Counted from the stretch's first letter, positions 3,304-64,000 are shown. The stretch: 64,000 nucleotides of DNA from Pirellulales bacterium (GCA_041750795.1 JBGSYQ010000064.1:5016-69015); one strand, 5' to 3'. The notes: a model not told the origin generated them from the sequence alone. Numbers and translations: made by a program.

Positions 3304-4773
3304 CTAGCTAGAACCGGCTTTGGCCTTGGCACGCGCTCGCCGCGGGCGCACCCCGTCGTTCAGGTCGGTGGCCGGCGGGCGCCGGTCGGCATTGGGCTGG
3401 GGCATCGGCGCCGAAACCGACTGCCGCCAGGCGACCAGTTTTTCGTGCAACTGCCTGGTTCTGTCCGGCAGTTCGGCCGCACGATTCACTCTCTCGCCGG
3501 GATCCTCGCTCAGATTATAAAGCTCCAGCCGCCCGTCCTCGAAGAACTCCAGCAGCTTCCAATCGCCCCAGCGAATGGCTCCGGCGGGCGTGGTTCTCCA
3601 GGTCCCGCCCGCGGAACCCAGATAGCCGGGGAAGTGCCAGTACAGCGGCGCTCGGTCGGCCGCGGCTTCGTTCGGCGTCACCAACAGGCTGGCATAGCTG
3701 TGGCCATCGAGCGTGTATGCCTTGGGCGCGATGGCGCCGGCTACGTCCAGCAGCGTCGGATAAAGATCGACGGAGTTGATGGGCGCCTGGCACGTTTGAC
3801 CCGCGGTGATCTTACCCTGCCAGCGGAAAAAATACGGTACGTGTACACCGCCCTCGTACAGCATGCCCTTGCCGCCGCGCAGCGGAGCATTGTCGGTGAT
3901 GTCTTTGGCTTGCACCCCTTCGCGAACGTATCCCCCAACGCCGCCGTTGTCGCTGGTGAAGATCACCAGCGTGCTGCCTGCGAGTTGAAGTTCGTCCAGC
4001 GCGGCGACGACGCGTCCGACGCTCTGATCGAGGCTGGCAATCATCGCGGCATACACCGGGTTGCCGTGTCCGCCCGCGGCCGGCTTGGTTTGGTACCGGC
4101 CGATCAAGTCCGCCTTAGCCTCCAGCGGCGTGTGAACGGCAAAGTGCGGCAGATACAGGAAGAACCGCTGGTCCTTGTGGCGGTGGATAAAGTCGACGGC
4201 CCGATCGGTAAGAAAGTCGGCCAGGTATGCGTCGGCGTCGTGCTCCGTCTGGGGATTGGTGGCAAAGTTGAAGTGGCGACCCGACGAGATGATCGCCTCA
4301 TCAAAGCCGCGTTTGCTGGGATGATGCTCGGGATCGTTGCCCAGATGCCATTTGCCGAACATGCCCGTGGCGTAGCCGGCTGCTTTGAGCGACTGCGCCA
4401 GCGTGATTTTGTCGAGCGGCAAATCGGCGACGTTTTCGGCGGGGCGCAAGGGACGGCTTTGCCAGTCGAACCGGTCGATGCTGCCGACCGTGTAAATGCC
4501 GGTGCGCGGCCCGTACTGCCCGCTCAGCAGCGCCGCCCTGGTAGGCTGACAATTGGGACCGCACGTATAGCCGTTGGCAAAGCGCACTCCCTCGGCGGCC
4601 AGGCGATCGATGTGGGGCGTCTCATAGTAGCCGCTGCCCGTGCAGCCGAGATCGGTGAAGCCCAGGTCGTCCGCGAGGATGAAGACGATGTTCGGGGGTT
4701 GCTCGGCGGCACCTGCGGTGTGAAAAGCGAGCAGCGCGGCCGTTGCGGCGGCATAGCGAAGGGCGTGCAGCAT
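3304..4773 (-). CDS. Sulfatase (formylglycine-dependent arylsulfatase family)
   Basis: 489 aa with a signal peptide. Contains PNIVFILADDLG, the C-x-P-x-R motif (CQPTRAALLSG), GKWHLG and TSDNGG. Confidence 0.9.
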   Translation of the reverse strand: MLHALRYAAATAALLAFHTAGAAEQPPNIVFILADDLGFTDLGCTGSGYYETPHIDRLAAEGVRFANGYTCGPNCQPTRAALLSGQYGPRTGIYTVGSIDRFDWQSRPLRPAENVADLPLDKITLAQSLKAAGYATGMFGKWHLGNDPEHHPSKRGFDEAIISSGRHFNFATNPQTEHDADAYLADFLTDRAVDFIHRHKDQRFFLYLPHFAVHTPLEAKADLIGRYQTKPAAGGHGNPVYAAMIASLDQSVGRVVAALDELQLAGSTLVIFTSDNGGVGGYVREGVQAKDITDNAPLRGGKGMLYEGGVHVPYFFRWQGKITAGQTCQAPINSVDLYPTLLDVAGAIAPKAYTLDGHSYASLLVTPNEAAADRAPLYWHFPGYLGSAGGTWRTTPAGAIRWGDWKLLEFFEDGRLELYNLSEDPGERVNRAAELPDRTRQLHEKLVAWRQSVSAPMPQPNADRRPPATDLNDGVRPRRARAKAKAGSS

Positions 4774-6978: not shown

Positions 6979-7020
6979 CGCTCCGACGCGCAACGTTTCG
7001 CCCACGAAAGTGAATCGGCC

Positions 7021-10000
7021 GTGATTGCTCGGTTTTTTGTCGATCGTCCGATCTTTGCCTGCGTGCTGTCGATCGCCATCACGCTGGCCGGCGGCATTGC
7101 CCTGGTCAACTTGCCGCTGGCGCAGTTTCCCAACATCTCGCCGCCAAACGTGGGCGTGCAATGCGTCTATCCCGGCGCCAATGCCGAGGACGTGGCCGGT
7201 GCCGTCGCCGCGCCGATCGAGCAGCAGATCAACGGTGTCGAGGGCATGCTCTACATGTCGTCGAGCTGCACGAACGACGGCCAATACAGCTTGAACATCA
7301 CCTTCGAGCACGGCACGAACCTGAACGTGGCCCAGGTGCTGGTGCAAAACCGCGTGGCCTTGGCCATCCCCTCGCTGCCCGACGCCATCAAGCAGCGCGG
7401 CGTCACCGTGCAAAAGCGCTCGCCCGACGTGTTGATGGGCGCCGCCCTCATGTCGCCCAGCGGCCAGTACGACCAGCTATACCTGAGCAATTATGCCAAA
7501 ACGCGCATTCGCGATGAACTGATGCGCTTGCCGGGAGTGGCCGACGTGCGCCTGTCGGGACAGCGCGATTACGCCATGCGCGTGTGGCTCAATCCGGAAA
7601 CGCTGGCGGCGCGAGACCTGACAGCCGGCGACGTGGTGCAAGCCATCCGCGATCAGAACAGCGAAGTGGCCATCGGCACGATCGGCGCTCCGCCGCTCAA
7701 CGAAGACCAGGTGTTCGCGCGCACGCTCTCGGCGTTGGGCCGGCTGGAAACCGTCGAGCAGTTTGCGGACATCGTGCTCAAAGCGTCCGACGACGGACGC
7801 ATCGTGCGGCTCAAGGACGTCGCACGAGTGGAGCTGGGTTCCGACAACCAGGACGTCAGCGTGCGCTACAACGGCCACGAGGCCGTCTTTCTGGTCGTCA
7901 CCCAGATGTCGAGCGCCAACGCGCTGGACGTGCACGAGGCTGTTATCGACAAGATGAACGAGCTGCAACGGGATTTTCCTGAAGGGATCATCTGGACCAT
8001 CAATTTCGACACCACGGTCTATACCAGTGAATCGATCCGCGAGGTTTTCAAGGCCCTGCGCGACGCCATCGTGCTGGTGGCCATCGTGGTGCTGGTGTTC
8101 CTGCAAAACTGGCGGTCCGCCATCATCCCGCTCGTGACGGTGCCCGTGGCCGTGGTGGGGACGTTCGCGGCCATGCTGGCGTTCGACTTCAGCTTGAACA
8201 ACCTGACGCTGTTCGGGTTGGTGCTGGCAATCGGCATCGTGGTGGACGACGCGATCGTGGTGGTCGAGGCGGTGGAACATCACATCGCCGCCGGCAAGTC
8301 GCCGCGCGAGGCCACGCTCGTAGCCATGCGGCAGGTGTCCGGGCCGGTTGTCGCGGTAGGGCTGGTGCTCAGCGCGGTGTTCGTGCCGTGCGCGTTCGTG
8401 AGCGGCATCACCGGGAAGTTCTTTCAGCAATTCGCACTGACGATCGCCGTGTCGACGATCATCTCGGCGTTCAATTCGCTGACGCTCAGCCCGGCATTGT
8501 GCGCGCTGGTGTTGCGTCCGCGCGGCTCGAAGCCGACGCCGCCGTTTCCCTGGCTGGCGTTTGCCGTGGCCGGCGGCTGGCTGGGCTGGGTGATGCTGCC
8601 CGAGCTTGCCGCCGATCGCCTGGGCATCGACTCGACCTCGTCCGCGTGGACCCGCGGGATCATGTGCGCCGCCGGAACCGTGGTCGGCGCCCTGGTGAGC
8701 TGGCCGGTGAATCAGATCTTGCGGGCCGCGTTTCGGCTGTTCAACTACGGATTCGATGCTTTCACCACGCTCTATCTGTGGATCGTGGGCAAGTTGCTTT
8801 ACGTCACGGTGTTGGTGTTGGTCGTGTATGGCGGACTGCTGGCCGTTACGTACGACAAGTTCGCCAGCACCCCCAAGGGCTTCATCCCTCAGCAGGACAT
8901 GGGCTATTTGCTGGTGACCGTGCAGTTGCCCGACTCGGCCTCGGTCGAACGGACCGCCAGGGTCATGCGGCAGATCGAAGCCCAGGCGTCGGCCATTCCC
9001 GGCGTCCACCACGTGACGGCCATTTCGGGCGAGTCGTTCGCCACCGGGGCCGCCGGGTCCAACTTCGGCTCGATGTTCGTCGGCTTCGATCCCTACGACG
9101 AGCGCCGCGAGCAGAGCCGCTCGAGCGGCGCCATCGTGGAAAAGCTGAAGCTAGGCTTCGAACTAATTCCCGACGCCAAGGTGCAGGTGTTTCCACCGCC
9201 CCCCATGCGCGGCGTGGGACGTGCCGGCGGCTTTACGCTGATGGTCGAGGATCGCAGCGCCCTGGGCTCCGACACGCTGCAAGCGCAGACCGAGGAGCTC
9301 GTCGCACGGGCCACCGAGCACCCCAGCCTGACGAACTTGTTCTCCGTTTTTCGGGCCAACGTGCCGATGCTCGAAGTCGATCCGAGTCCGCGCGAAGTGG
9401 CGATGAAGCGCGTCAATCTGCGAGACTTCGCCGAAACGCTGACGGTCTTCCAGGGATCGCTGCACGTCAACGACTTCAATCTGCTGGGACGCACCTGGAA
9501 AGTGATCGTGCAGGCCGAGCATGCATTTCGTGACGAAGTCGAGGACATCGCCCGGCTCAAGGTTCGCAATGCCGAAGGCGCGATGGTCCCGCTCGGCTCG
9601 CTGGCCACCGTGAAGCAGGTCAACGGGCCGCTGGTGGTGAACCGTTACAACATGTACCCGGCCGCATCGATCACCGGCGCGGCCCAGCCGGGCACCAGTT
9701 CCGGCGATTCGCTCAAAGTGATGGAACAACTGGCCACGGCCACGCTGCCGTCGACGATGGCGTTCGAGTGGACCGAGCTGGCGTACTTGGAATTGAAGGC
9801 CGGCAACACCGCCATGGTGATCTTCGGCTTCGCCGTGGCGATGGTGTTTCTGGTGCTGGCGGCCCAATACGAAAGTTGGTCGTTGCCGCTGGCGGTGATC
9901 CTGGTGGTGCCGATGTGCCTGTTGAGCGCCATCATCGGCGTCAACCTGGCCGGCCAGGACATCAACATCTTCACTCAAATTGGCTTCGTCGTGCTGGTGG

Positions 10001-10452
10001 GGCTGGCCAGCAAGAACGCGATTCTGATCGTGGAATTCGCCAAGCACATGCGCGAAAACGGCGAGTCGCGCCGCCATGCCACGCTCGAAGCGTGCCGACT
10101 GCGCCTGCGGCCCATCATCATGACGTCGTGCGCGTTCATCTTGGGCGCCGCGCCGTTGATGATCGCCCACGGTGCGGGGGCGGAAATGCGACAAACGCTG
10201 GGCACGGCCGTGTTCAGCGGGATGGTCGGCGTGACGCTGTTCGGCATCTTTCTCACGCCGGTGTTCTTCACCACCATCGACTGGCTGGGCGGAACGCGAA
10301 TGTTTGCCTCGCGCCTGGCACGGCGCGGCGCCCAGCTTTCACTCGGCCTGCTCACCTTGCGGCCGATACGACGATTGCGCGAAAAGCTGTACAAGCCATC
10401 GCCACCCCACTACAAACCGCCTGCGCGCCGCGAGCGCGTCACCCACGAGTAG
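7021..10452 (+). CDS. RND (HAE1/AcrB-like) inner-membrane efflux permease, copy 1
   Basis: 1143 aa with a GTG start. [42 protein letters not shown] and the rest are collinear with AcrB-type pumps. Confidence 0.95.
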   Translation: [1143 protein letters not shown]

Positions 10453-10460
10453 AACTCGCC

Positions 10461-13400
10461 GTGTTCTCCAACTTCTTCATCAGCCGTCCGATCTTTGCCA
10501 GCGTGATGTCGATCGTCATCACGCTGGCCGGCGGCATTGCGCTGTTCACGCTGCCCATCGCGCAATACCCGGAGATCGCGCCCCCCACGGTCGAAGTCTC
10601 CGCGTCCTATCCGGGCGCCAACGCGCGCGTGATGGTCGACACCGTGGCGGCGCCGATCGAAGAGCGGGTCAACGGCGTGGAAGACATGCTCTACATGTCG
10701 TCGCAGTGTACCAACGACGGGACGTATACGCTGACCGTGACCTTTGCCAACGGCGTCGATCTGAACATGGCACAGGTGCTGGTGCAAAACCGCGTGGCGC
10801 TGGCGCAACCAATCTTGCCGGAGCTGGTACAGCGGCGCGGCGTGAGCGTCAAGAAAAAATCGCCCAGCGTGTTGATGATCGTCAACCTGTTCTCGCCCGA
10901 CGATTCACGCGACAGCCTGTACCTGAGCAACTATGCGACCATTCAACTGAAGGACGAATTGTCGCGCGTGCCGGGCGTCGGCGATATCACCTACCTGGGC
11001 CAGCGCAACTACAGCATGCGACTCTGGCTCGACCCGGAAAAAATGGCCTCGCGCAACCTGTCGGTCGCCGACGTCACCACGGCCATCGAGCAGCAGAACA
11101 CGCAAGTCGCAGCCGGGCAAGTCGGTCAGCCGCCGGTCAATACCGGGCAGGTGTTCCAGTTCACCGTCAGCACCATGGGACGCCTGGCCGATCCCGACGA
11201 GTTCGCCGACATGATCTTGAAGACCGATGCCAGCGGCCGCCTGGTGCGCCTGCGCGACGTGGCGCGGATTGAACTAGGCGCCGAGGGCTACGACCAGACC
11301 TGCCGGCTCAACGGCATGCCATCGGTGGCGCTCTCGATCTATCAGTTGCCTGGCTCCAACGCGCTGGAAATCGCCGAGCAGGTCAAGGAAAAGATGGTCG
11401 GCCTGAAGGCGCGCTTTCCCACCGGCGTCGACTACGCCATCGTCTACGACACGACGCCGTTCATCACCGAGTCGATCAACGAAGTGTTCAAGGCGCTGCG
11501 CGATGCGATCGTGCTGGTGGCGATCGTGGTGCTGGTGTTTCTGCAAAACTGGCGCTCGGCCATCATCCCCCTGGTGGCCGTGCCGGTGGCGATCGTCGGC
11601 ACGTTTGCCGTGATGGCGGCCATGGGCTTCAGTCTCAACAACTTCACGCTGTTCGGGTTGGTGCTGGCCATCGGCATCGTGGTGGACGACGCCATCGTGG
11701 TGGTGGAGGCCGTGGGCTATCACATCGAGCACGGGCTGTCGCCGCGCGACGCCACGATCCGAGCCATGAGCCAGGTGTCCGGGCCGGTGATCGCCGTGGG
11801 CCTGGTGCTCAGCGCCGTGTTCGTGCCGTGCGCCTTCATCACCGGCATCATGGGGCAGTTCTTCCGGCAGTTCGCGCTGACGATCGCAGTATCGATGGTG
11901 ATCTCGACGATCAACTCGCTGACGCTCAGTCCCGCGCTGACGGCGCTGTTGCTACGCCCGCGCGAAAAGGGCTCTGGACCGCCGTTGCCTTGGCTGGCAT
12001 ATGTTCTGGTCGGCGGTTGGCTGGGCTGGGAATACGTTTCCCCCTGGTTGATTGCGGGCGGCCACCTCGCCTGGATCGCACCGGACCACATGCCCTGGGT
12101 GGCCATGCTGCTGGCAGCGGCGGCCGGCGGCATCGTGAGCTGGCCCGTCAATCAAGTGTTGCGGTTGGTGTTTCGGACGTTCAACCTGGCGTTCGACGTT
12201 TCCACCAACGTCTACTTGTTCTTCGTCGGCAAAATGCTGCGCGTCAGCCTGCTGGTGCTGGTGGTGTATGGCGGCCTGCTGTATCTGACGTATACGAATT
12301 TTCTTGCCGCGCCAAAGGGCTTCATTCCCACGCAGGACAAGGGGTATCTGCTCGTCAATCTGCAATTGCCCGATTCGTCCAGCGTGACCCGCACCGAAGA
12401 GGCCATGCGCCGCGTCGAGGAAGTCGTGCGCACGTCGCCCGGCGTCAAGCATACGGTTTCGATCTCCGGCCAGTCGATGCTGTTGGGCGCCAACGCTCCG
12501 AACTTCGGCGCCATGTACATCATGCTCGACGACTTCCACCACCGCCTGGCGCCGGAGCTTTCGGCCGATGCACTGGCGGCCCGCTTGCAACGCACGCTGC
12601 AAGCCCAGATCGTCGACGGGTTGGTGAACGTGCTGGGAGCGCCGCCGCTGGAGGGTCTGGGTACGTCCGGCGGATTCAAATTGATGATCGAAGATCGCGG
12701 CAACACCGGGCTCGACGCGCTGCAGGAGACGGCCGACCGTGTCGTGGAGGCGGCCGAGCAGGCGCCCGAGTTGTCCAATCCCTTCACCAGCTTCCGCGCC
12801 CAGACGCCATGGCTCTATCTCGACATCGATCGCACCGAGGCCAAGGTGCTGGGCGTGCCCATGGCCGAGGTCTTCAACACCTTGCAGGTCTATCTGGGAT
12901 CGCTGTACGTCAACGACTTCAACCTGTTCGGGCGCACCTGGCAGGTGAACGTGCAGGCCGACCGGCATTTTCGCGAGCAGATCGAGGATCTCAAGCAACT
13001 TCGCGTGCGCAACGACCGCGGACGCATGGTGCCCTTGAGCGCGTTTGCATCGGTGCGCGAGGTGACCGGCCCGGTGCTTATCGCGCGGCACAATCTCTAC
13101 TCGGCGGCGCCTGTCATCTGCAACGCGGCTCCCGGCGTCAGTTCGGGCCAGGCCATCGAGCGATTGGAAGACGTGGTCCAACAGCAGCTCAATTGGTCGA
13201 TGCGCTACGAATGGACCGAGTTGGCCCTGCTGCAGTTGCAGACGGGCAACACGGCCATGATCGCTCTGTTGTTGGCCGTGGTGCTGGTGTTTCTGGTGCT
13301 GGCGGCACAATATGAAAGCTGGGCGCTGCCGCTGGCGGTGATCCTCGTTGTGCCGATGTGCCTGCTGTGCTCGATCGTGGCCGTGCTGTGGGCCGAGATG

Positions 13401-13883
13401 GACGTGAACATCTTCACGCAGGTGGGATTCGTCGTGCTGGTGGGCCTGGCCTGCAAGAACGCCATTCTGGTGGTGGAGTTTGCCCGGGCACAGCGCGAAG
13501 CCGGGCTCGATCGCTACGAGGCGACGATCGAAGCCTGCAAGCTCCGCCTGCGTCCGATCGTGATGACGTCGTTCGCGTTCATTTTGGGGGTGCTGCCGCT
13601 GGTGGTGTCGGTGGGGGCAGGCGCCGAAATGCGCCGCACGCTGGGTACGGCCGTGTTCGGCGGCATGTTGGGCGTGACGATGTTTGGCATTTTTCTCACG
13701 CCCGTGTTCTACTATGTCATCGAGTGGGCCGGCGACATGCGCAGATTGCTCCACAAGCTGCGCTCCGGGCCGCCGCCGGCCTGGGTGTCTCGCTTGGGGC
13801 TGCGGCGGCCGGCGCGCCTTGCAAAGCGCGAGCTGCGCGTGGCCGCTCACGAGGAAGAGACGGCCGACGTCGATGCGACGTGA
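10461..13883 (+). CDS. RND (HAE1/AcrB-like) inner-membrane efflux permease, copy 2 (paralog of copy 1)
   Basis: The track ORF 9768..13883 is over-extended. The AcrB-type N-terminus [42 protein letters not shown] begins at GTG 10461, 9 nt after the copy-1 stop. Long blocks are identical to copy 1 ([28 protein letters not shown]). Confidence 0.9.
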   Translation: [1140 protein letters not shown]

Positions 13884-37905: not shown

Positions 37906-38005
37906 CGTGCGAGCGTTTGCGGAAGTTATTCTTGAGTCATTCCTAGGAGGGCATTCTAACGGCCCGCGACGGCGCCTGTCGACCGTGGCGATTCCGGGTA
38001 TTGGT

Positions 38006-38582
38006 TCACTTTGAACCATGATTTTTCAATACTGCCGGCAGGTAGTCGGTCAGCCGCCCCTTTAGCTTGGATTCTTCGGCCTCGATCATTTTAACCAAGT
38101 CCAGCACCGTCAGGGGAGAGAGAGTTGGTCAGACCAGCGGCCACGGCCGGGGTGGTCTTTAGGGTCATGTGCTTGCGGATGAAGTCGTAGCGGAAGCAAT
38201 GCAGGGCGAGCGCGTGAACGTGGTTGTCGACCTTCTAGGAAAACGCATTAGTTGGCCGTGTCATCGGGCGCACCGACATTCGCACGGTCAGATTCTGCCG
38301 CTCGATAATGCTGGAGCTGAAGTTCCTCGCGTCCGGGTTGCCCGACTTGGTTTCCTTCTTGCAGCCCTTGCACTCGTCAGGGCTGTAGCGGCGCTGCTCT
38401 TCAACGCCCGGTTTGCCGAAGATTTTCACAAGCATGGCGTAATCGACGTTGGCGTGGAAAGCCTTGTCGACCGCATCGGCGTAGACCGAATGGCTATCGG
38501 TCGTTAGCTGAATGCGGCTTTCCAGGCAGGATTCAACGTTGCGTACGAACACTTCGGCGCGTCTGGATGTCAAAGTGAACAC
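38006..38582 (-). pseudogene. IS1595-family (ISXO2-like DDE) transposase, C-terminal fragment with in-frame stop
   Basis: ..DYAMLVKIFG..RRYSPDECKGCKKETKSGNPD..SSSIIERQNLTVRMSVRPMTRPTNAFS*KVDNHVHALALHCFRYDFIRKHMTLKTTPAVAAG.. The TAG at 38235-38237 interrupts the conserved TNAFSKK motif. The whole N-terminal half of the transposase is missing. Confidence 0.75.
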
Positions 38583-38588
38583 TCGCGC

Positions 38589-38597
38589 TGCTATAAT
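38589..38597 (+). promoter_or_regulatory. Extended -10 box TGCTATAAT, 6 nt upstream of ATG 38604
   Basis: Same TG-n-TAnAAT-N6-ATGAGC geometry as the four copies at 60950, 61239, 61850 and 63226. Confidence 0.5.
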
Positions 38598-38603
38598 GGG
38601 ACC

Positions 38604-38747
38604 ATGAGCAAAGAGAAGCGAGGTTGGTGGGAATACCTTGTCGTGGTAGGCGTCGCTCTCAGTGTGCTGTACATATTGGCGCGCCTTCTAATTCCAGACA
38701 AATGGATAGCTACCGACGTATTCCTGGGACCAACACTCTTTCCCTGA
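38604..38747 (+). CDS. Small hydrophobic protein (47 aa), candidate leaderless gene
   Basis: Not in the ORF track (<60 aa). My translation is MSKEKRGWWEYLVVVGVALSVLYILARLLIPDKWIATDVFLGPTLFP, with one TM segment and an N-terminus (MS.EK.) like 60965 and 61254. Confidence 0.4.
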   Translation: MSKEKRGWWEYLVVVGVALSVLYILARLLIPDKWIATDVFLGPTLFP

Positions 38748-38749
38748 TT

Positions 38750-40126
38750 TCAAAGTGAACCACTATCCGATTCCGTGCCGGAAGTTCGCGGGGCGTCGAA
38801 GTCGACCGGGTCGTCGAACTCGCGCCGGGCCTCCGCCATCAATCGCTCCAGGCGAGTCCGCTGGGCGGCATGTTGGGCTTCCCCGGCCAGATTGTGCAGC
38901 TCCTCGGGATCCTGCCGCAGATCGAACAATTGCGTGTTGCGCACGCCGCCGGCGTTGTATTGCAGCAGCTTCCACCGCGCGTCGCGCACCATCCGCTGGC
39001 AATCCTTATAAGCGCCAAACACATGATCGCGCACCGCCGCCTGGCGGCCATCGACGATGCCCAGCAGGCTCTTTCCTTCGACCACCGACGGGGTGTCCAC
39101 GCCGCCCAGTTCGCAAATCGTCGGAAACAGATCGAACAAATACACCAGCGCGTCGGACTGGCCGTGCGGAATGCCGGGGCCGGCGATGATCAGCGGCGGC
39201 TTGACGTGCTCGTAGAGATTTTGCTTGCCCATCAGCCCGTGCCGCCCGCCGACGGCCAACCCCTGGTCGCTGGAGTAAATCACAATGGTGTTGTCGGCCA
39301 GCCCGCGCTGATCCAGCTCTTTAAGAATCCGCCCCACTTCGTGATCGAGGTGTGAAATGGTGGCGTAATACTCCGCCAGGTGCTGCCGCATGACGGCCTC
39401 GGTGCGCGGAATGGGGGCCAGCAACTCGTCGCGCACCTGCAACTCGCCATTGTCAAACGGATGCTCCGGCAGAAAGTTTTCGGACAGCGAAAGTTTCTCC
39501 GGATCGTACATCTCCATGAACTCGGCAGGCGCCGTACGCGGATCGTGCGGCACGGGCGGCGCCAGGTAAACGAAAAACGGCCGCTGGCCATCGTGTTGCC
39601 GGAGAAACTTCAGCACCTCGTCGGCGCCCTCGCTGGCCGATGTGGGCGTGCGCCCTTGCGTGGATATATCCGTTTGAAAGGCCGCATTGCCGAACGTACA
39701 CGAGTTGCCCGCCTTGCCGCAGTGAAACGTGGCGTAGCCGGCGTCGTTCAACAGCGCCGGCAGCAGCGGCACGCCGGCCGGCGCGATCTTGGCGCGAGGA
39801 TTCTCCGGAATCCGCCACAGCGACCGCCCGGTAATGAGCATCGTGCGACTGGGAAGGCACACCGCGCCGACCATCGAGCCCATGCAGTAGGCGTTGTTGA
39901 AATGAAAGCCGCGCTCGACGAGCCCGTCGACGTTGGGCGTGCGGATCTCCGGATTGCCCAACGCGCCAACGGTGTCCCAACGCTGATCGTCGGTAAAGAC
40001 GAACAGAATGTTCGGACGCTGAGGGCGCGGTTCGGCTGCCACCAGCGCGCTGCCCAACGCGCCAACAACCCATGCCGCAGCGATGGCGCCAACCAGTGCA
40101 ATGGCACGCCGGCCGATGATGTTCAT
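38750..40126 (-). CDS. Sulfatase
   Basis: Start set at MNIIGRR (40126). Contains PNILFVFTDDQRWD and C-x-P-x-R (CLPSRTMLITG). The last 4 codons and the stop lie inside the IS terminal repeat. Confidence 0.9.
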   Translation of the reverse strand: MNIIGRRAIALVGAIAAAWVVGALGSALVAAEPRPQRPNILFVFTDDQRWDTVGALGNPEIRTPNVDGLVERGFHFNNAYCMGSMVGAVCLPSRTMLITGRSLWRIPENPRAKIAPAGVPLLPALLNDAGYATFHCGKAGNSCTFGNAAFQTDISTQGRTPTSASEGADEVLKFLRQHDGQRPFFVYLAPPVPHDPRTAPAEFMEMYDPEKLSLSENFLPEHPFDNGELQVRDELLAPIPRTEAVMRQHLAEYYATISHLDHEVGRILKELDQRGLADNTIVIYSSDQGLAVGGRHGLMGKQNLYEHVKPPLIIAGPGIPHGQSDALVYLFDLFPTICELGGVDTPSVVEGKSLLGIVDGRQAAVRDHVFGAYKDCQRMVRDARWKLLQYNAGGVRNTQLFDLRQDPEELHNLAGEAQHAAQRTRLERLMAEARREFDDPVDFDAPRTSGTESDSGSL

Positions 40127-40225
40127 GCTCGCCCCCTGGCGTTGTAAAAACGGTGCGCCGCAAAGATCGTGATGTGGCCCCCCTTGCTCCACGGCGGCAC
40201 GCGGGCTCGAGCAACCGAACCTGCG

Positions 40226-60584: not shown

Positions 60585-60837
60585 GACGTGGTGCCGCCGC
60601 ATAACATTGTGCCTCATTGCGCGGAATGTCAGGTCGCATTGCCGAATCCTAACCCCAGCATCGCGCCGGCGAAAGCATTCGGGCGGAGATGTCGGATCAG
60701 CTATGTGAAGATCTATGTAGCCGGGGCGTTTCTTTTGGTGCGACTGAGCGCGGCACTTCACTCGAAAAACACCTTTGATCGTATTCGTGCCATCATTGCG
60801 GTCTGGCCGGAGCTATGTACCTTTCCCGAGAGACGAC

Positions 60838-60860
60838 GGAGGAGGAGGAGGAGGAGGAGG
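60838..60860. repeat. (GGA)7 trinucleotide tract
   Basis: Read directly from the sequence. It lies in the divergent spacer at the left edge of the A/T-richer island. Confidence 0.9.
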
Positions 60861-60949
60861 TTGCGCGAACCAAACTCTGCCGCCTGCACACGATCTTAGG
60901 ACACTACCAATCACTTACACTGGCCACCGCCGCACTACACAGCGCCCAC

Positions 60950-60958
60950 TGCTAGAAT
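60950..60958 (+). promoter_or_regulatory. Extended -10 box TGCTAGAAT, 6 nt upstream of ATG 60965
   Basis: TG-n-TAGAAT, then cccggt, then ATGAGC. No Shine-Dalgarno fits in the spacer. Confidence 0.5.
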
Positions 60959-60964
60959 CCCGGT

Positions 60965-61165
60965 ATGAGCGACGTCAAAACGAAGTTGAAAATCAATTCG
61001 CTGATGGTTGTCGGCACTTTTTCGGCAGTCACATGCGTGCCCACTGCTGTCGGCATCGCGTTCGAGTCCGGCACGGATCGGCTAGTCCTGGCTGCGATAG
61101 CGCCAATTAGCGGAATCTTGGCTGCGTTCTCATTGGCGATGGCATATCGGCATGGTAAAGCATAG
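60965..61165 (+). CDS. Small membrane protein (66 aa, 2 predicted TM), island gene a
   Basis: MSDVKTKLKINSLMVVGTFSAVTCVPTAVGIAFESGTDRLVLAAIAPISGILAAFSLAMAYRHGKA. The leaderless-type promoter lies directly upstream. Confidence 0.5.
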   Translation: MSDVKTKLKINSLMVVGTFSAVTCVPTAVGIAFESGTDRLVLAAIAPISGILAAFSLAMAYRHGKA

Positions 61166-61238
61166 CCCCACCACCGCCCAGCAACACACTATCCACCCAG
61201 TACCAAATTCCGAAAAGTCGCCCTAGTTGTCCGCCCGC

Positions 61239-61247
61239 TGCTACAAT
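61239..61247 (+). promoter_or_regulatory. Extended -10 box TGCTACAAT, 6 nt upstream of ATG 61254
   Basis: TG-n-TACAAT, then gccgga, then ATGAGCGAC. Confidence 0.5.
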
Positions 61248-61253
61248 GCCGGA

Positions 61254-61412
61254 ATGAGCGACGAGAAAAAACGATTCGAAGAACTCACGCCAGATGACGC
61301 ATGGGTCCACGAGATGCTTGATCTTGGACTGTACACTTGGCGCCACGCCGTTGGGACGATTGCGGTCGCGGCGCTCATCGGATTCTACGTGTGGTGGAAA
61401 TACTCCCCATGA
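61254..61412 (+). CDS. Small membrane protein (52 aa, C-terminal TM), island gene b
   Basis: MSDEKKRFEELTPDDAWVHEMLDLGLYTWRHAVGTIAVAALIGFYVWWKYSP. The track ORF starts at 61227; I prefer the ATG at fixed distance from the -10 box. Confidence 0.5.
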   Translation: MSDEKKRFEELTPDDAWVHEMLDLGLYTWRHAVGTIAVAALIGFYVWWKYSP

Positions 61413-61804
61413 CCCCCGCCCCTAAGCGCCGCTGGCTACGGTTCTCGCTGCGGACGATGCTCGTGGCGATGACTCTGTTGGCTGCTGGTTTAGGCTGGAG
61501 ACTTGCGGTGGCTCGGCAACACCAAGCATTGTATTCGCGGTTGCACGCGCGCAGCGTGCGCCTGGTTTACACCGACGAGTTTGGGTACGCATCCGACTTG
61601 GATTACTACTGGTGTTGCGTCAAGGAGGCATTTGGATACGAAAGGATTTATGAGGCATGGTTTGAAATCCCTCGGGGGGCAAACTTCCCAGACGGCTGTA
61701 AGCCTGATTTGCTTGCACTTCGAGCGATGCATCCGAACGTCGCCGTTTGGGGAAACTTTGGGGGATGCGGCGAACGGATAGACATCGACTCACTTGGGCG
61801 CTAG
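61409..61804 (+). CDS. N-terminally anchored protein (131 aa) with KRRW-RFSLRTMLV module, island gene c
   Basis: The ATG overlaps the stop of gene b (ATGA). The product begins MTPAPKRRWLRFSLRTMLVAMTLLAAGLGW, followed by a unique Cys/aromatic-rich C-terminal domain. Confidence 0.6.
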   Translation: MTPAPKRRWLRFSLRTMLVAMTLLAAGLGWRLAVARQHQALYSRLHARSVRLVYTDEFGYASDLDYYWCCVKEAFGYERIYEAWFEIPRGANFPDGCKPDLLALRAMHPNVAVWGNFGGCGERIDIDSLGR

Positions 61805-61849
61805 GCCTCCTGCACACACTCGCGGGCAGTGCGACAACCTGCCGCCCCC

Positions 61850-61858
61850 TGCTAGAAT
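61850..61858 (+). promoter_or_regulatory. Extended -10 box TGCTAGAAT, 6 nt upstream of ATG 61865
   Basis: Same geometry as the other copies. Here the ATG opens only a 22-codon ORF and a 155-nt leader that precedes gene e. Confidence 0.45.
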
Positions 61859-61864
61859 GAAGCC

Positions 61865-62019
61865 ATGGTGCGCCCTGAAGATTCGGCACGCGACAGCGTG
61901 GCGAGTCGTGCTGTGTGTCAGACTAGCGGGTGAGAGTCCCTTGGCGCTAAGCGCCGGAGCGCCGTGTAGCAGGACCTAAGGATACGGAGCCGGCGCGCCA
62001 CCGCGCCTGAGGTCTACCA
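61865..62019 (+). other. Candidate structured 5' leader / small RNA upstream of gene e
   Basis: Possible long-range pairing GGUGCGCC (61867-61874) with GGCGCGCC (61992-61999). Local hairpins are CACGC-GACA-GCGUG, GGCGC-UAA-GCGCC and GGCGCG-CCAC-CGCGCC, the last next to the GAGG ribosome-binding site. Confidence 0.3.
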
Positions 62020-62256
62020 ATGAGCGAGCAACAGGGAATCAACGACATTGAGTGGGACAACCCAGAGAATTGGGCGGGCTTAGGGTTGTTCCAGGCCTAT
62101 TTCAGCAAGCGTGATTCACGCATGTTCGTGCTGAGCCGCTGGGGGAGCATAACACCGAACTACGGCCACCGCTTCACTATCTTGCTCCGCAGCGTCGTGC
62201 TAGCTTTGGCGTTTGGGGTGTTCGCCTTCGCAATCATTTCCAGATATCCCAAATGA
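62020..62256 (+). CDS. Small membrane protein (78 aa), DUF5808-like, island gene e
   Basis: NPENWAGLGLFQAYFSKRDSRMFVLSRWGSITPNYGH resembles the DUF5808 pattern (W..G.FY.N..D.R.FV.KR.G.G.T.N) from memory, followed by a TM segment. GAGG lies 6 nt upstream of the ATG. Confidence 0.55.
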   Translation: MSEQQGINDIEWDNPENWAGLGLFQAYFSKRDSRMFVLSRWGSITPNYGHRFTILLRSVVLALAFGVFAFAIISRYPK

Positions 62257-62723
62257 CTCCCGCCCCAAAGCGCCGCTGGCAACGATTCTCGCTGCGGACG
62301 ATGCTCGTGGTGGTCGCCGCAACGGGACTTATCATTGGACTCGGAGGGCGCAATTTAACTCTGGAGCGTCAGGCGCGCTTCCACGATGAGCAAGCACAAT
62401 CCCAAGCCCATCAATTCTATTACCGCGCTCCCTTTGACGAGAGTTTGAAATTGGGAGGGGAGGATCAGGCGCGATTGTGGGGCATGTATCGGGCACGAGC
62501 ACGCTGGCATTGGGAGAAAGCTCAACAGTATCGCCGGGCCATATGGCGGCCGTGGTTACAAGTGAAGGCGGGCGGTGAACTGCCACCGGACCCGGAACCA
62601 CATTTGCCGCTTGCGCCCCCAGAAAGCACAGGCGGTTGGAGCAGCCTAGAAGCGTACCGCAGCAACGGTGGTCGCGGTAGCCAGTCCTTGAGGGAAAGCC
62701 CGTATGAACGACGCCTCCCGTAA
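62253..62723 (+). CDS. N-terminally anchored protein (156 aa) with KRRW-RFSLRTMLV module, island gene f
   Basis: The ATG overlaps the stop of gene e (ATGA). The product begins MTPAPKRRWQRFSLRTMLVVVAATGLIIGLG, followed by a unique helical/charged C-terminus. Confidence 0.6.
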   Translation: MTPAPKRRWQRFSLRTMLVVVAATGLIIGLGGRNLTLERQARFHDEQAQSQAHQFYYRAPFDESLKLGGEDQARLWGMYRARARWHWEKAQQYRRAIWRPWLQVKAGGELPPDPEPHLPLAPPESTGGWSSLEAYRSNGGRGSQSLRESPYERRLP

Positions 62724-63162
62724 CCGCCGCTGGCTGCGGTTCTCGCTACGGACGCTGTGTTCATTGACTCGCGGTGAGCCGGACGTTGTGATTCGGTGGG
62801 CCGGACCACTAATTCTCGTGGGAGCCGTTCTCGGATTTGCATCCGCGAGGCTTGAACTCCCTGGTGTGATCACGGCGATGTTTGCAATCGCATTCGGCGC
62901 ATCCGGCGGTTCGCTCGTCCAATGGCGACACGAACGGGGTCTCTGGATGCTCGCCGGCATCTTCCTCCTCCTCAACATCACGATCTACAGCCTGTGCGTC
63001 TATGGCAAGGTCAGTGACTTAGCGCGAGGCGCTCCTCCGAACGACTTTGGACTGATCATCGACTTCAGTCTGGGAACACTAGTTCTTTCAAGTACAATCC
63101 AGTTCCTTTGGCGAGTCGCCAAACACAACTGGACTCTCTCACGAGAATCGGAGAACGCTTAA
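62704..63162 (+). CDS. Polytopic membrane protein (152 aa, ~4 TM) starting with a variant RRWLRFSLRT module, island gene g
   Basis: MNDASRNRRWLRFSLRTLCSL.. then four hydrophobic segments. It overlaps gene f by 20 nt. Confidence 0.5.
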   Translation: MNDASRNRRWLRFSLRTLCSLTRGEPDVVIRWAGPLILVGAVLGFASARLELPGVITAMFAIAFGASGGSLVQWRHERGLWMLAGIFLLLNITIYSLCVYGKVSDLARGAPPNDFGLIIDFSLGTLVLSSTIQFLWRVAKHNWTLSRESENA

Positions 63163-63225
63163 CGCAAGCGCCGCCCACCAACACACGACTACGAAAATGC
63201 CGGAAAACAACCACCCAGCGCCACT

Positions 63226-63234
63226 TGCTAGAAT
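63226..63234 (+). promoter_or_regulatory. Extended -10 box TGCTAGAAT, 6 nt upstream of ATG 63241
   Basis: TG-n-TAGAAT, then cccgga, then ATGAGCAAC. The surrounding ~35 nt are nearly identical to the copy at 60944-60970. Confidence 0.5.
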
Positions 63235-63240
63235 CCCGGA

Positions 63241-63948
63241 ATGAGCAACCAGCTACGCAGCGCGTTGAAACTGCTGGCCATGAGATTCCGTGGACTGGTG
63301 CCACGCTATAGCCTTCGCGCCCTGTTGGTCGGCGTGGCTTTGACGGCCGCGCTGATTCCAATTGGGCAAATCGGTTGGCGCCGATTTGCCCGCTATAGCG
63401 AAGTCCGCCAATACGCCACGCTCCAAGCGTCGCGGACATGGCCTGTTGCATCACTTCAGTCTTTCGTCATCGACGAAGGTCGCGGAGTTCCCGACGACTT
63501 TGCCATCCTGGTGCGCCAGGGCAACACGTTCGGCTGCTTCATCCCTCGCAATCAATTTAAGAGAGGCGAGTCCGTCGAATACGATTGGTATTATCGTACA
63601 GATGGCCTCGGTCGATTCGACCCCAGCGACCCCCAAGTTCAATCCGGTCGCGGCTTCGCCGGACCCTATGTCTTCGGCAGCGAGTCGGTCATGATCACAT
63701 TTGGCCCATTCACGATCCCCTGGTCGGGCGGCGGTCCCGGCTGGGGATTCATCTACTTCGACTATAATCCAGACCCGCCAGACCGTTCGGCGCCCGACGT
63801 TCTCCGCATCTGCTCGACCGACATCAAGAGCTTGACCTTAATCGACGGCCGCGACGGGCACTGGATCTACAAATCGCATCGCGAAGACCGTGGTCTTGCC
63901 GGCAACCAACCTGCCAACATGCAAAACACATCGCGCAAGACCGACTAA
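63241..63948 (+). CDS. N-terminally anchored protein (235 aa) with variant RYSLRALLV module, island gene h
   Basis: MSNQLRSALKLLAMRFRGLVPRYSLRALLVGVALTAALIPIG, then a Gly/aromatic-rich beta-like domain (WYYRTDGLGRFDPSD.., GPGWGFIYFDYNPDP). Confidence 0.6.
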   Translation: MSNQLRSALKLLAMRFRGLVPRYSLRALLVGVALTAALIPIGQIGWRRFARYSEVRQYATLQASRTWPVASLQSFVIDEGRGVPDDFAILVRQGNTFGCFIPRNQFKRGESVEYDWYYRTDGLGRFDPSDPQVQSGRGFAGPYVFGSESVMITFGPFTIPWSGGGPGWGFIYFDYNPDPPDRSAPDVLRICSTDIKSLTLIDGRDGHWIYKSHREDRGLAGNQPANMQNTSRKTD

Positions 63949-63971: not shown

Positions 63972-64000
63972 ATGACCGCCCCTAAGCGCCGCTGGCTACG
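63972..64000 (+). CDS. Start of another KRRW-RFSLRT-module gene (island gene i), truncated by the window edge
   Basis: atgaccgcccctaagcgccgctggctacg (MTAPKRRWL..) is identical to the gene c 5' module except for one missing codon. Confidence 0.4.

Follow-up and report, generated by a model that had tools for sequence, protein, structure and literature searches.

A recurrent extended −10 and start-codon signal at predicted leaderless genes in Planctomycetota

Five copies of the signal in one planctomycete genome

The window analysed here is a stretch of 64,000 nucleotides (nt) from a Pirellulales bacterium (GCA_041750795.1 JBGSYQ010000064.1:5016-69015), and the element in question is a short signal in which an extended −10 promoter element, TGCTANAAT, is followed after any six nucleotides (N6) by an ATG codon. 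TGCTANAAT-N6-ATG has five matches in the 64 kb window, at 38589, 60950, 61239, 61850 and 63226, all on the plus strand, compared with 0.01 expected from dinucleotide-preserving shuffles of the window; the nine-mer itself occurs five times and has ATG behind N6 in all five cases. The first-pass annotation of this DNA had described five copies of fixed geometry and had argued that they were very unlikely to be due to chance, and both statements hold, as do the spacers that it listed (cccggt, gccgga, gaagcc, cccgga and gggacc) and the ATGAGC start at four of the five copies (ATGGTG is found at 61865). Its report of two nearly identical copies is also borne out, with 83% identity across 40 nt between 60934–60973 and 63210–63249. 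Each copy has TGC directly 5′ of TAnAAT, the layout of an extended −10 element, and four of the five have no match to a −35 element, as is expected for extended −10 promoters; the copy at 61850 alone has a −35-like GCGACA, with a 16 nt spacer. The distance of exactly 6 nt between the −10 hexamer and the start codon lies within the 6–8 nt used as a criterion for leaderless genes, and the spacers would fall within the untranscribed discriminator, with no space for a 5′ untranslated region (UTR) or a Shine–Dalgarno sequence.

Four of the copies head the predicted transcription units of a low-GC accessory island of ∼4 kb (∼60.9–64.9 kb). The G+C content of the window is 63.6%, with a third-position G+C of ∼0.8 in the core genes; from ∼60.8 kb to the end of the window the values are ∼57% and 0.61–0.72. 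The core encodes sulfatase-like proteins (judged from sequence) and a PSCyt1/PSCyt2/PSD1 protein, which identifies the organism as a planctomycete. The neighbours of the island are a carbon–nitrogen hydrolase (CN-hydrolase in Pfam) on the left and a DUF6263 gene (from the contig table) on the right, and an imperfect direct repeat, a 29 nt block that is described below, brackets it. At its right end the window is identical to a contig (L001) that continues for another ∼3 kb, in which there are another gene of the RRW-anchor type (see below), a near-copy of the block and the core-like DUF6263 gene. A (GGA)8 simple repeat is found at 60837–60861, in the intergenic stretch between the hydrolase gene and the island.

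All of the island features that follow are on the plus strand. Promoter 1 (60940–60964) consists of a C-rich run, the extended −10 element TGCTAGAAT (60950–60958) and the spacer cccggt, with no −35 match, and precedes a predicted leaderless open reading frame (ORF) of 66 residues, MSDVKTK... (60965–61165), with two hydrophobic segments. Promoter 2 (61229–61253; C-rich run, TGCTACAAT at 61239–61247, spacer gccgga) precedes a predicted leaderless ORF of 52 residues, MSDEKKR... (61254–61412), with a C-terminal hydrophobic segment. The stop codon of this ORF overlaps, as ATGA, the start of the gene for a 131-residue protein with the N-terminal anchor MTPAPKRRWLRFSLRTMLV (61409–61804), which is probably translationally coupled to it. 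Gene calling carries some of the ORFs behind the signal upstream, across their own promoter, as with the TTG-extended ORF in the window; the ‘RCYTAGM’ extension in P0039 is an example. On the minus strand, TAGAAT-ccg-ATGAGC is found at 61382–61387, inside the 3′ end of the 52-residue ORF, with a 3 nt spacer and without TG; it may be a chance occurrence or a weak antisense promoter. No antisense promoter is supported within the small ORFs, as this hexamer without TG is their only one on the minus strand and the counts of TANAAT in the window equal chance.

Promoter 3 (61840–61864; C-rich run, TGCTAGAAT at 61850–61858, spacer gaagcc and the −35-like hexamer) is followed by a 5′-terminal ATG that opens a 22-codon ORF (61865–61933) and by an untranslated stretch that reaches 62019. 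The leader at 61865–62030 folds no better than its shuffles (z = −0.37) and has no significant Rfam match, and a riboswitch or structured leader was therefore rejected. Three genes lie behind this promoter (62020–63162): one for a 78-residue protein (62020–62256), with GAGG 7 nt upstream and a C-terminal stretch that is hydrophobic by eye, one for a 156-residue RRW-anchor protein (62253–62723), the start of which lies within an ATGA overlap, and one for a 152-residue NRRWLRFSLRT protein (62704–63162), which overlaps the preceding gene. Promoter 4 (63216–63240; TGCTAGAAT at 63226–63234, spacer cccgga) precedes a predicted leaderless ORF of 235 residues, MSNQL... (63241–63948), with an N-terminal hydrophobic anchor and a conserved domain of ∼170 residues. 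The next gene of this unit, for a 140-residue RRW-anchor protein, MTAPKRRWL..., begins at 63972 and runs past the end of the window at 64000; it is complete in L001 (1933–2355). Just beyond, at L001 2449–2510, CGCTACAAT-N6-ATG heads an RRW-type gene in which the frame is broken after nine codons by a 13 nt tandem duplication (CCCCTAATCGCAG/CCCCTAATCGCCG), and which is likely to be a recent pseudogene. No intrinsic terminators were found between the island units. ORF length is weak evidence for the small ORFs, as 23–29% of the ATG codons in the island open ORFs that are equally long.

The fifth copy lies in a 775 bp remnant of an insertion sequence (IS; 37995–38769). Here, promoter 5 (38579–38603, plus strand; TGCTATAAT at 38589–38597, spacer gggacc) precedes a predicted leaderless ORF of 47 residues, MSKEKRGWW... 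(38604–38747, plus strand), with one hydrophobic segment. The remnant has 21 nt inverted repeats (37995–38015 and 38749–38769) that are 90% complementary, and encodes, on the minus strand (38020–38582), the C-terminal half of a transposase in degenerate form. This fragment has no match in Pfam, PHROGs or NCBIfam; from its appearance (…TNAFS; …KVDNHVHALALH…) it may be IS1595-like, and no hidden Markov model library could type it. An internal copy of the repeat core (38566–38580) forms with the right repeat a pair of 15 nt direct repeats 180 nt apart, and the promoter 5 cassette thus lies between 15 nt direct repeats. Nothing other than the consensus ties this module to the island copies. Both inverted repeats reach into the ends of the sulfatase-like ORFs on either side; the final codons of the gene at 38750–40192, with its stop codon, come from the right repeat. 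The three tiny transmembrane products of the first-pass annotation are upheld in part: those of 66 and 47 residues are hydrophobic, whereas the segment in the 52-residue product is only borderline, with a score of 1.8 in a 17-residue window and no segment found with a 19-residue window and a cut-off of 1.6.

Recurrence and conservation of the signal

The 21-mer TGCTANAATNCCGGNATGAGC (18 specified bases) was scanned against one genome per species and gave 45 loci, 23 of which are in metagenome-assembled genomes (MAGs) of Planctomycetota; by our arithmetic ∼17 chance matches are expected over all taxa, in 1.2e12 positions. The 21-mers in the MAGs are preceded by a run of C (typically CCCCGCCCCC) and followed by unrelated ORFs, among them many membrane ORFs of 47–104 residues, RRW-anchor proteins, a sigma-factor-like protein, a pseudopilin-like protein and some ORFs with no more than 4–28 residues. 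Outside the phylum, the matches include a 456-residue ORF kept in three Arenimonas genomes, which looks like cysS, and several Chloroflexi genes, and they look like ordinary leaderless genes. There is also one phage ORF: the scan of viral contigs gave a single match, a 56-residue ORF (MSIDDVMKHF...) with the same geometry in a non-planctomycete phage, which looks like a phage repressor. The first-pass annotation had taken the arrangement to be a special module, and this does not stand, as the nine-mer with N6 spacing precedes many unrelated genes, the outcome that the annotation itself had named as refuting it.

The spacing was analysed in ∼550 kb of planctomycete DNA, comprising the window, 158 kb around the seed matches with the seeds removed, 309 kb of metagenome loci obtained with the peptide RRWLRFSLR and a 20 kb locus obtained through a protein homologue. 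An ATG lies exactly N6 behind TANAAT in 6 of 20 cases in the window, 8 of 79 in the unseeded MAG loci and 17 of 149 in the metagenome loci, and every other spacing from 0 to 15 accounts for 0–5 cases each. A logo of 33 non-redundant unbiased sites shows C in the four positions before the extension (18–20 of 33), then T or G, and then G (27 of 33) and C (25 of 33) directly before TA; after the hexamer there is a G/C-rich spacer, ATG, mostly AGC and then GA(C/A). The common signal is thus ∼33 nt long: a C-run, (T/G)GC-TAnAAT, a G/C-rich six-mer and ATG AGC GA. When the sites are sorted together the similarity ends at the edges of these ∼33 nt, and both flanks are unrelated. K-mer enrichment upstream of 50 promoters yielded T-runs only and no common upstream motif. 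A further 15 TGCTANAAT sites were found in other planctomycete DNA; nine have N6-ATG and six are leadered (∼60% leaderless), one of the six with the Shine–Dalgarno sequence AAGGGAG.

Six extended −10/N6/ATG modules lie within 6.2 kb on an independent contig, L117, among small genes that have no annotation, so dense islands of this type recur. The contig also carries an orthologue of the 52-residue ORF, for which the homologue search found two proteins, one with 61% identity (E = 1e-14) and one with 55% (E = 3e-12). In the L117 orthologue 28 of 51 residues are identical and the frame is kept, the substitutions being spread over the three codon positions (16, 12 and 19). Its promoter is TGCTATACT-gccggg-ATG, with the identical N6 spacing, and the only upstream sequence conserved between the two loci is CGCTGCTA(C/T)A(A/C)TGCCGG(A/G)ATG; further up they are unrelated. 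Like the window copy, the L117 orthologue overlaps an RRW-anchor gene by ATGA, and the gene caller has extended it upstream through the promoter (‘PRCYTAGM’). As to whether the small ORFs are conserved as reading frames in relatives, on which the first-pass annotation had made its proposal depend, at least the 52-residue ORF is, together with its promoter geometry. The 235-residue protein has 27 homologues, with 43–77% identity. Two of four orthologous loci examined for it have (C/G)ATAAT 20–55 nt upstream, so that their leader would be short, and the other two have no −10-like element abutting the start; since the orthologues are leadered, the leaderless start of the 235-residue gene appears to be a local acquisition. 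Such promoters would be gained and lost gene by gene, and the gain at this gene bears no mark of transposition.

The association of the signal with small membrane proteins, which had been proposed earlier, is strengthened by the wider sample. A hydrophobic 17-mer is found in 21 of 28 ORFs of 35–110 residues behind TANAAT-N6-ATG (75%), compared with 4% of 2022 other short ORFs, an 18-fold enrichment with an odds ratio of 73 and p = 4e-23, in a set that partly comes from seeded or RRW-selected loci. Judging from these sequences, most of the short ORFs behind the signal would be translated membrane proteins, as the enrichment is otherwise hard to explain.

RRW-anchor proteins and intergenic blocks

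In several of the larger island proteins a hydrophobic helix comes after an N-terminal MTPAPKRRWLRFSLRT. The motif, (K/R)RRWLRFSLRT with its helix, is joined to a wide variety of C-terminal domains that are unrelated to one another, leucine-rich repeats among them, in proteins that range from 60 to 385 residues; it is present at 61409, 62253, 62704 and 63972 in the window and in more than 60 metagenome loci (L049–L112). We regard it as an N-terminal arginine-rich hydrophobic anchor shared by multiple families, and it has the look of a membrane anchor or an export signal specific to the lineage, with twin arginines that recall the motif of the twin-arginine translocation (Tat) system. No Pfam or NCBIfam model matched the motif in the window proteins. 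The proteins of 131 and 140 residues are members of a sub-family marked by a weak LFPEA motif at the C-terminus. The AlphaFold2 model of the former (predicted local distance difference test score of 76) has a long N-terminal helix and a small alpha/beta domain, and gave no PDB fold match at E ≤ 0.001 (best E = 0.45). The collected DNA contains 86 RRW genes: 16 have their own TAnnnT-N6-ATG, and a further 11 are preceded by a predicted leaderless ORF that stops at most a few bases from their start; of these 11 upstream ORFs, eight are short (46–87 residues) and most are hydrophobic. The L074 and L075 loci (Ga0351864_10152) contain a tandem duplication of ∼7.9 kb with several RRW-anchor genes, including some for leucine-rich-repeat proteins.

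A toxin-like, holin-like or immunity-like role had been suggested for the small proteins and has no support in PHROGs, PADLOC, Pfam, NCBIfam or Rfam. No island protein has a significant match in the first four of these, and no phage, defence or toxin family matched any of them; Rfam gave nothing for the whole window at gathering thresholds, and under relaxed search conditions the island yielded a single match, which is not significant (E = 0.49). A holin or phage lysis cassette was rejected, given the absence of a PHROGs match for any island protein and neighbours that are CN-hydrolase and DUF6263 genes. The RRW proteins were likewise rejected as a single immunity family, as the motif is fused to unrelated domains in proteins of 60–385 residues. 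At L048 9267–10078 the truncated end of an Rhs/YD-repeat core (…DPIGF) with a transposase-like tail directly precedes an RRW-anchor gene; apart from this YD fragment nothing hints at a connection with polymorphic toxin systems, in which an immunity-like role would be possible. No toxin gene flanks the island in the window, and PADLOC has no match there.

Two conserved blocks lie between the genes. The first, CCGCCTGCACACGATCTTAGGACACTACC (60880–60908, plus strand), is at the left edge of the island and has a near-identical copy at L001 2877–2905 (approximately window coordinate 64916). Over ∼28 nt it reads CCTGCACACGAT(C/T)TTA(A/G)GACACTACC, and we refer to it as CCTGCACACGATCTTAGGACACTACC. 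The same 22–28-mer is found in the MAG loci L015 (3540–3565) and L020, and in diverged form in L011, the last two on the minus strand. It lies just after a stop codon and 37–43 nt upstream of the −10-like hexamer of unrelated genes, and in L117 a TGCTACAAT promoter is immediately adjacent to its 3′ part (GGACACTACC). The second block, CCGCCCAGCAACACACTATCCACCCAGTACCAAATTCCGA (61175–61214, plus strand), is C-rich and G-poor and has a near-identical copy in L015 (3585–3625), a Pirellulales MAG; it reads CAGCAACACACTA(T/A)CCACCCAGTACCAAA at 61177–61210, is called CAGCAACACACTAnCCACCCAG for short and is also found at L015 5979 and L048 10265. The second shared block of the first-pass annotation is therefore present at 61175–61214, and the copy that it placed at 63170–63218 (plus strand), GCCGCCCACCAACACAC ... 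CAACCACCCAG, is more diverged. The scan of viral contigs for the intergenic block gave no match, and no hairpin potential is apparent by eye in either block. From its position, about −50 to −80 from the predicted start, a block would suit an activator or an UP-like site; the C-rich, G-poor composition would suit Rho loading (rut-like), and the second block could be regulatory. The placement at the boundaries of units would also suit recombination.

Elsewhere in the window, the long ORFs at 6979–10452 and 9534–13883 both match the AcrB/AcrD/AcrF transporter family, and their open frames overlap by ∼900 nt; the true start of the second gene is probably well inside its ORF.

Probable leaderless initiation and its alternatives

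The signal is probably a consensus for leaderless genes that is shared across the clade and is neither private to this genome nor mobile. The extended −10 element, of the primary-sigma type, would put the transcription start on the first base of the ATG; such a promoter would consist of the C-rich run and (T/G)GC-TAnAAT and would need no −35 element. The mRNA would begin at the start codon without a Shine–Dalgarno sequence, ribosomes would load directly through the 5′-AUG and the downstream genes would be translated by coupling (at the ATGA overlaps) or from weak Shine–Dalgarno-like sites. The signal would then head four island units and one ORF in an IS remnant, and the island, a set of fast-evolving genes, would encode lineage-specific small membrane proteins and RRW-anchored proteins. 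This reading is well supported by comparison between genomes, with the start site, sigma factor, leaderless translation and coupling predicted from sequence. Initiation on the A of the ATG was also the mechanism of the first-pass annotation, and it has the best support. The N6 peak, the unrelated flanks and the use of the same promoter with leadered genes together indicate that it is the ordinary strong promoter of the clade, N6-ATG being its commonest use. Initiation is known to occur ∼7 nt after the −10 hexamer, at a purine flanked by pyrimidines (PMC12641261), and a −10 box 6–8 nt before the start codon is a recognised signature of leaderless genes (PMC6028130, PMC3160421), which has been checked by mapping transcription start sites in Mycobacterium (PMC3898074) and Deinococcus deserti (PMC4007540). 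The sole planctomycete genome in PMC5397173 shows low Shine–Dalgarno use, and its signal was ascribed to leaderless mRNA, ribosomal protein S1 or both.

Several observations weigh against this reading. Core ORFs in the window number ∼36, and the arrangement is present, in weak form, at only two or three of them (an example is GATAAT-N6-ATG at 4773, minus strand, before a sulfatase-like ORF with a signal-peptide-like N-terminus), so that within this genome strong matches to the consensus cluster in accessory DNA. The four orthologous loci of the 235-residue gene have a different N-terminus and are not leaderless. While the 52- and 235-residue ORFs are conserved coding sequences, the 66-residue ORF has no homologue in a large protein collection and no family match, and neither it nor the 47-residue ORF has a match by tblastn among the fetched loci. 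The 22-codon ORF is not coding-like (G+C of 0.65/0.65/0.57 at the three codon positions), and some of the MAG sites head ORFs of only 1–28 residues. The literature searched contained no map of planctomycete transcription start sites.

The last of these ORFs bear on a different explanation, in which ATG is only a preferred initiating sequence, with A at +1 and T at +2, and the transcripts are leadered or non-coding, with the short ORFs untranslated. At 61850 the 22-codon ORF is followed by ∼86 untranslated nt and its ATG lies 155 nt before the next gene, the ORFs of 1–28 residues lie behind the signal at several MAG sites, and a purine start flanked by pyrimidines is a general preference of the polymerase (PMC12641261). 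However, the whole ATG triplet, and not A alone, is enriched at exactly N6, the ORFs behind the signal are 18-fold enriched in hydrophobic helices, the 52- and 235-residue ORFs are conserved proteins, and both the frame and the ATGA coupling are retained in L117; we consider this explanation extremely improbable. A private promoter–start cassette that duplicates or moves and is captured by new genes would account for the identity between 60934–60973 and 63210–63249, which exceeds the bare consensus, for the copy between 15 nt direct repeats in the IS remnant and for the 235-residue gene, where a promoter and a novel N-terminus here, with leadered orthologues of up to 77% identity, fit promoter replacement. 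Against it, the copies here and in more than 20 other genomes are alike only over the ∼33 nt, with unrelated flanks; neither inverted repeats nor target duplications flank the island copies, many MAGs have the identical 21-mer in front of unrelated genes, and the one viral match is to the repressor-like gene of a non-planctomycete phage. Such a cassette is therefore very unlikely, and the mobile module of the first-pass annotation is not retained, as there are no flanking repeats at the four island copies. A mobile element or integron cassette was rejected at the island on similar grounds: the modules share the consensus only, and general family scans of the island proteins gave no integrase or transposase match, with the attC shape judged by eye only.

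The third alternative is that the extended consensus (C-run, GC-TAnAAT and GCCGGA) marks a regulon for small membrane proteins under a specialised sigma factor or regulator, active for instance in envelope stress or stationary phase, and is not the housekeeping promoter. The consensus does hold more information than a plain −10 element, and only accessory genes have it within the window, the core genes being without it. TGnTAnAAT is, though, the textbook extended −10 element of the primary sigma factor. The same 21-mer heads an apparently leaderless housekeeping gene outside the phylum (the 456-residue Arenimonas ORF), the promoter also precedes leadered genes with Shine–Dalgarno sequences, and k-mer enrichment revealed no common upstream element, so that we give a regulon a very low probability. 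In M. tuberculosis, non-growth functions are over-represented among leaderless mRNAs, which become more abundant in starvation (PMC3898074), which has been counted here in favour of a regulon; the bias of leaderless genes there towards non-growth and accessory functions equally parallels the accessory bias seen here.

Several known systems resemble the arrangement. In the leaderless genes of Actinobacteria and Deinococcus (group C of GeneMarkS-2), TAnnnT lies 6–8 nt before the start, with no Shine–Dalgarno sequence and usually no −35 element, as is the case here. The class is elsewhere enriched in small, accessory and novel proteins, and some of its 5′-AUG codons open short leader peptides (PMC6028130, PMC3898074, PMC4007540, PMC4633059), which the N6 peak and the 22-codon ORF match; the latter resembles the 5′-AUG leader peptides of leadered D. 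deserti mRNAs (PMC4007540), or may be a decayed cassette. The present consensus is richer: TAnAAT rather than TAnnnT, with a common TG extension, a C-run, a G/C-rich spacer and ATG-AGC-GA. In M. tuberculosis only 7% of TANNNT motifs carry TGN and GTG is as common as ATG, whereas all of the starts here are ATG. In extended −10 promoters TG lies one base 5′ of a near-consensus hexamer, as it does here, although here the intervening base is nearly always C and TG is preceded by a C-run that is absent from the classical element. The mRNAs of lambda cI, transcribed from PRM, and of Tn1721 tetR are leaderless, and cI also starts with AUG AGC. These phage and transposon regulators share the 5′-AUG, but the genes here are chromosomal, encode membrane proteins, lie in multi-gene units and have neither a regulator nor a phage context. 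The hydrophobic proteins of 47–66 residues with their own promoters recall type I toxins, which have a long structured 5′ UTR, whereas the mRNAs here would have none and the ORFs would be co-transcribed with larger genes. A type I toxin–antitoxin system was rejected, as no 5′ UTR is possible, no antisense RNA gene is supported and no Rfam or Pfam family matches.

A more ambitious proposal is that a dedicated ∼33 nt promoter–5′-AUG signal drives fast-turnover small membrane proteins that are coupled to RRWLRFSLRT proteins, in islands bounded by the CCTGCACACGATCTTAGGACACTACC and CAGCAACACACTAnCCACCCAG blocks as regulatory or recombination sites, and that these together would make up an undescribed cassette system for varying the envelope. 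We regard it as unlikely. If the clade-wide consensus for leaderless genes is real, it would aid the annotation of gene starts in planctomycetes and would help to find small membrane proteins that have been missed. The signal is also a candidate for a strong and compact promoter in planctomycete genetic tools, and the recurrent islands of predicted leaderless membrane-protein genes and RRW proteins are an open lead.

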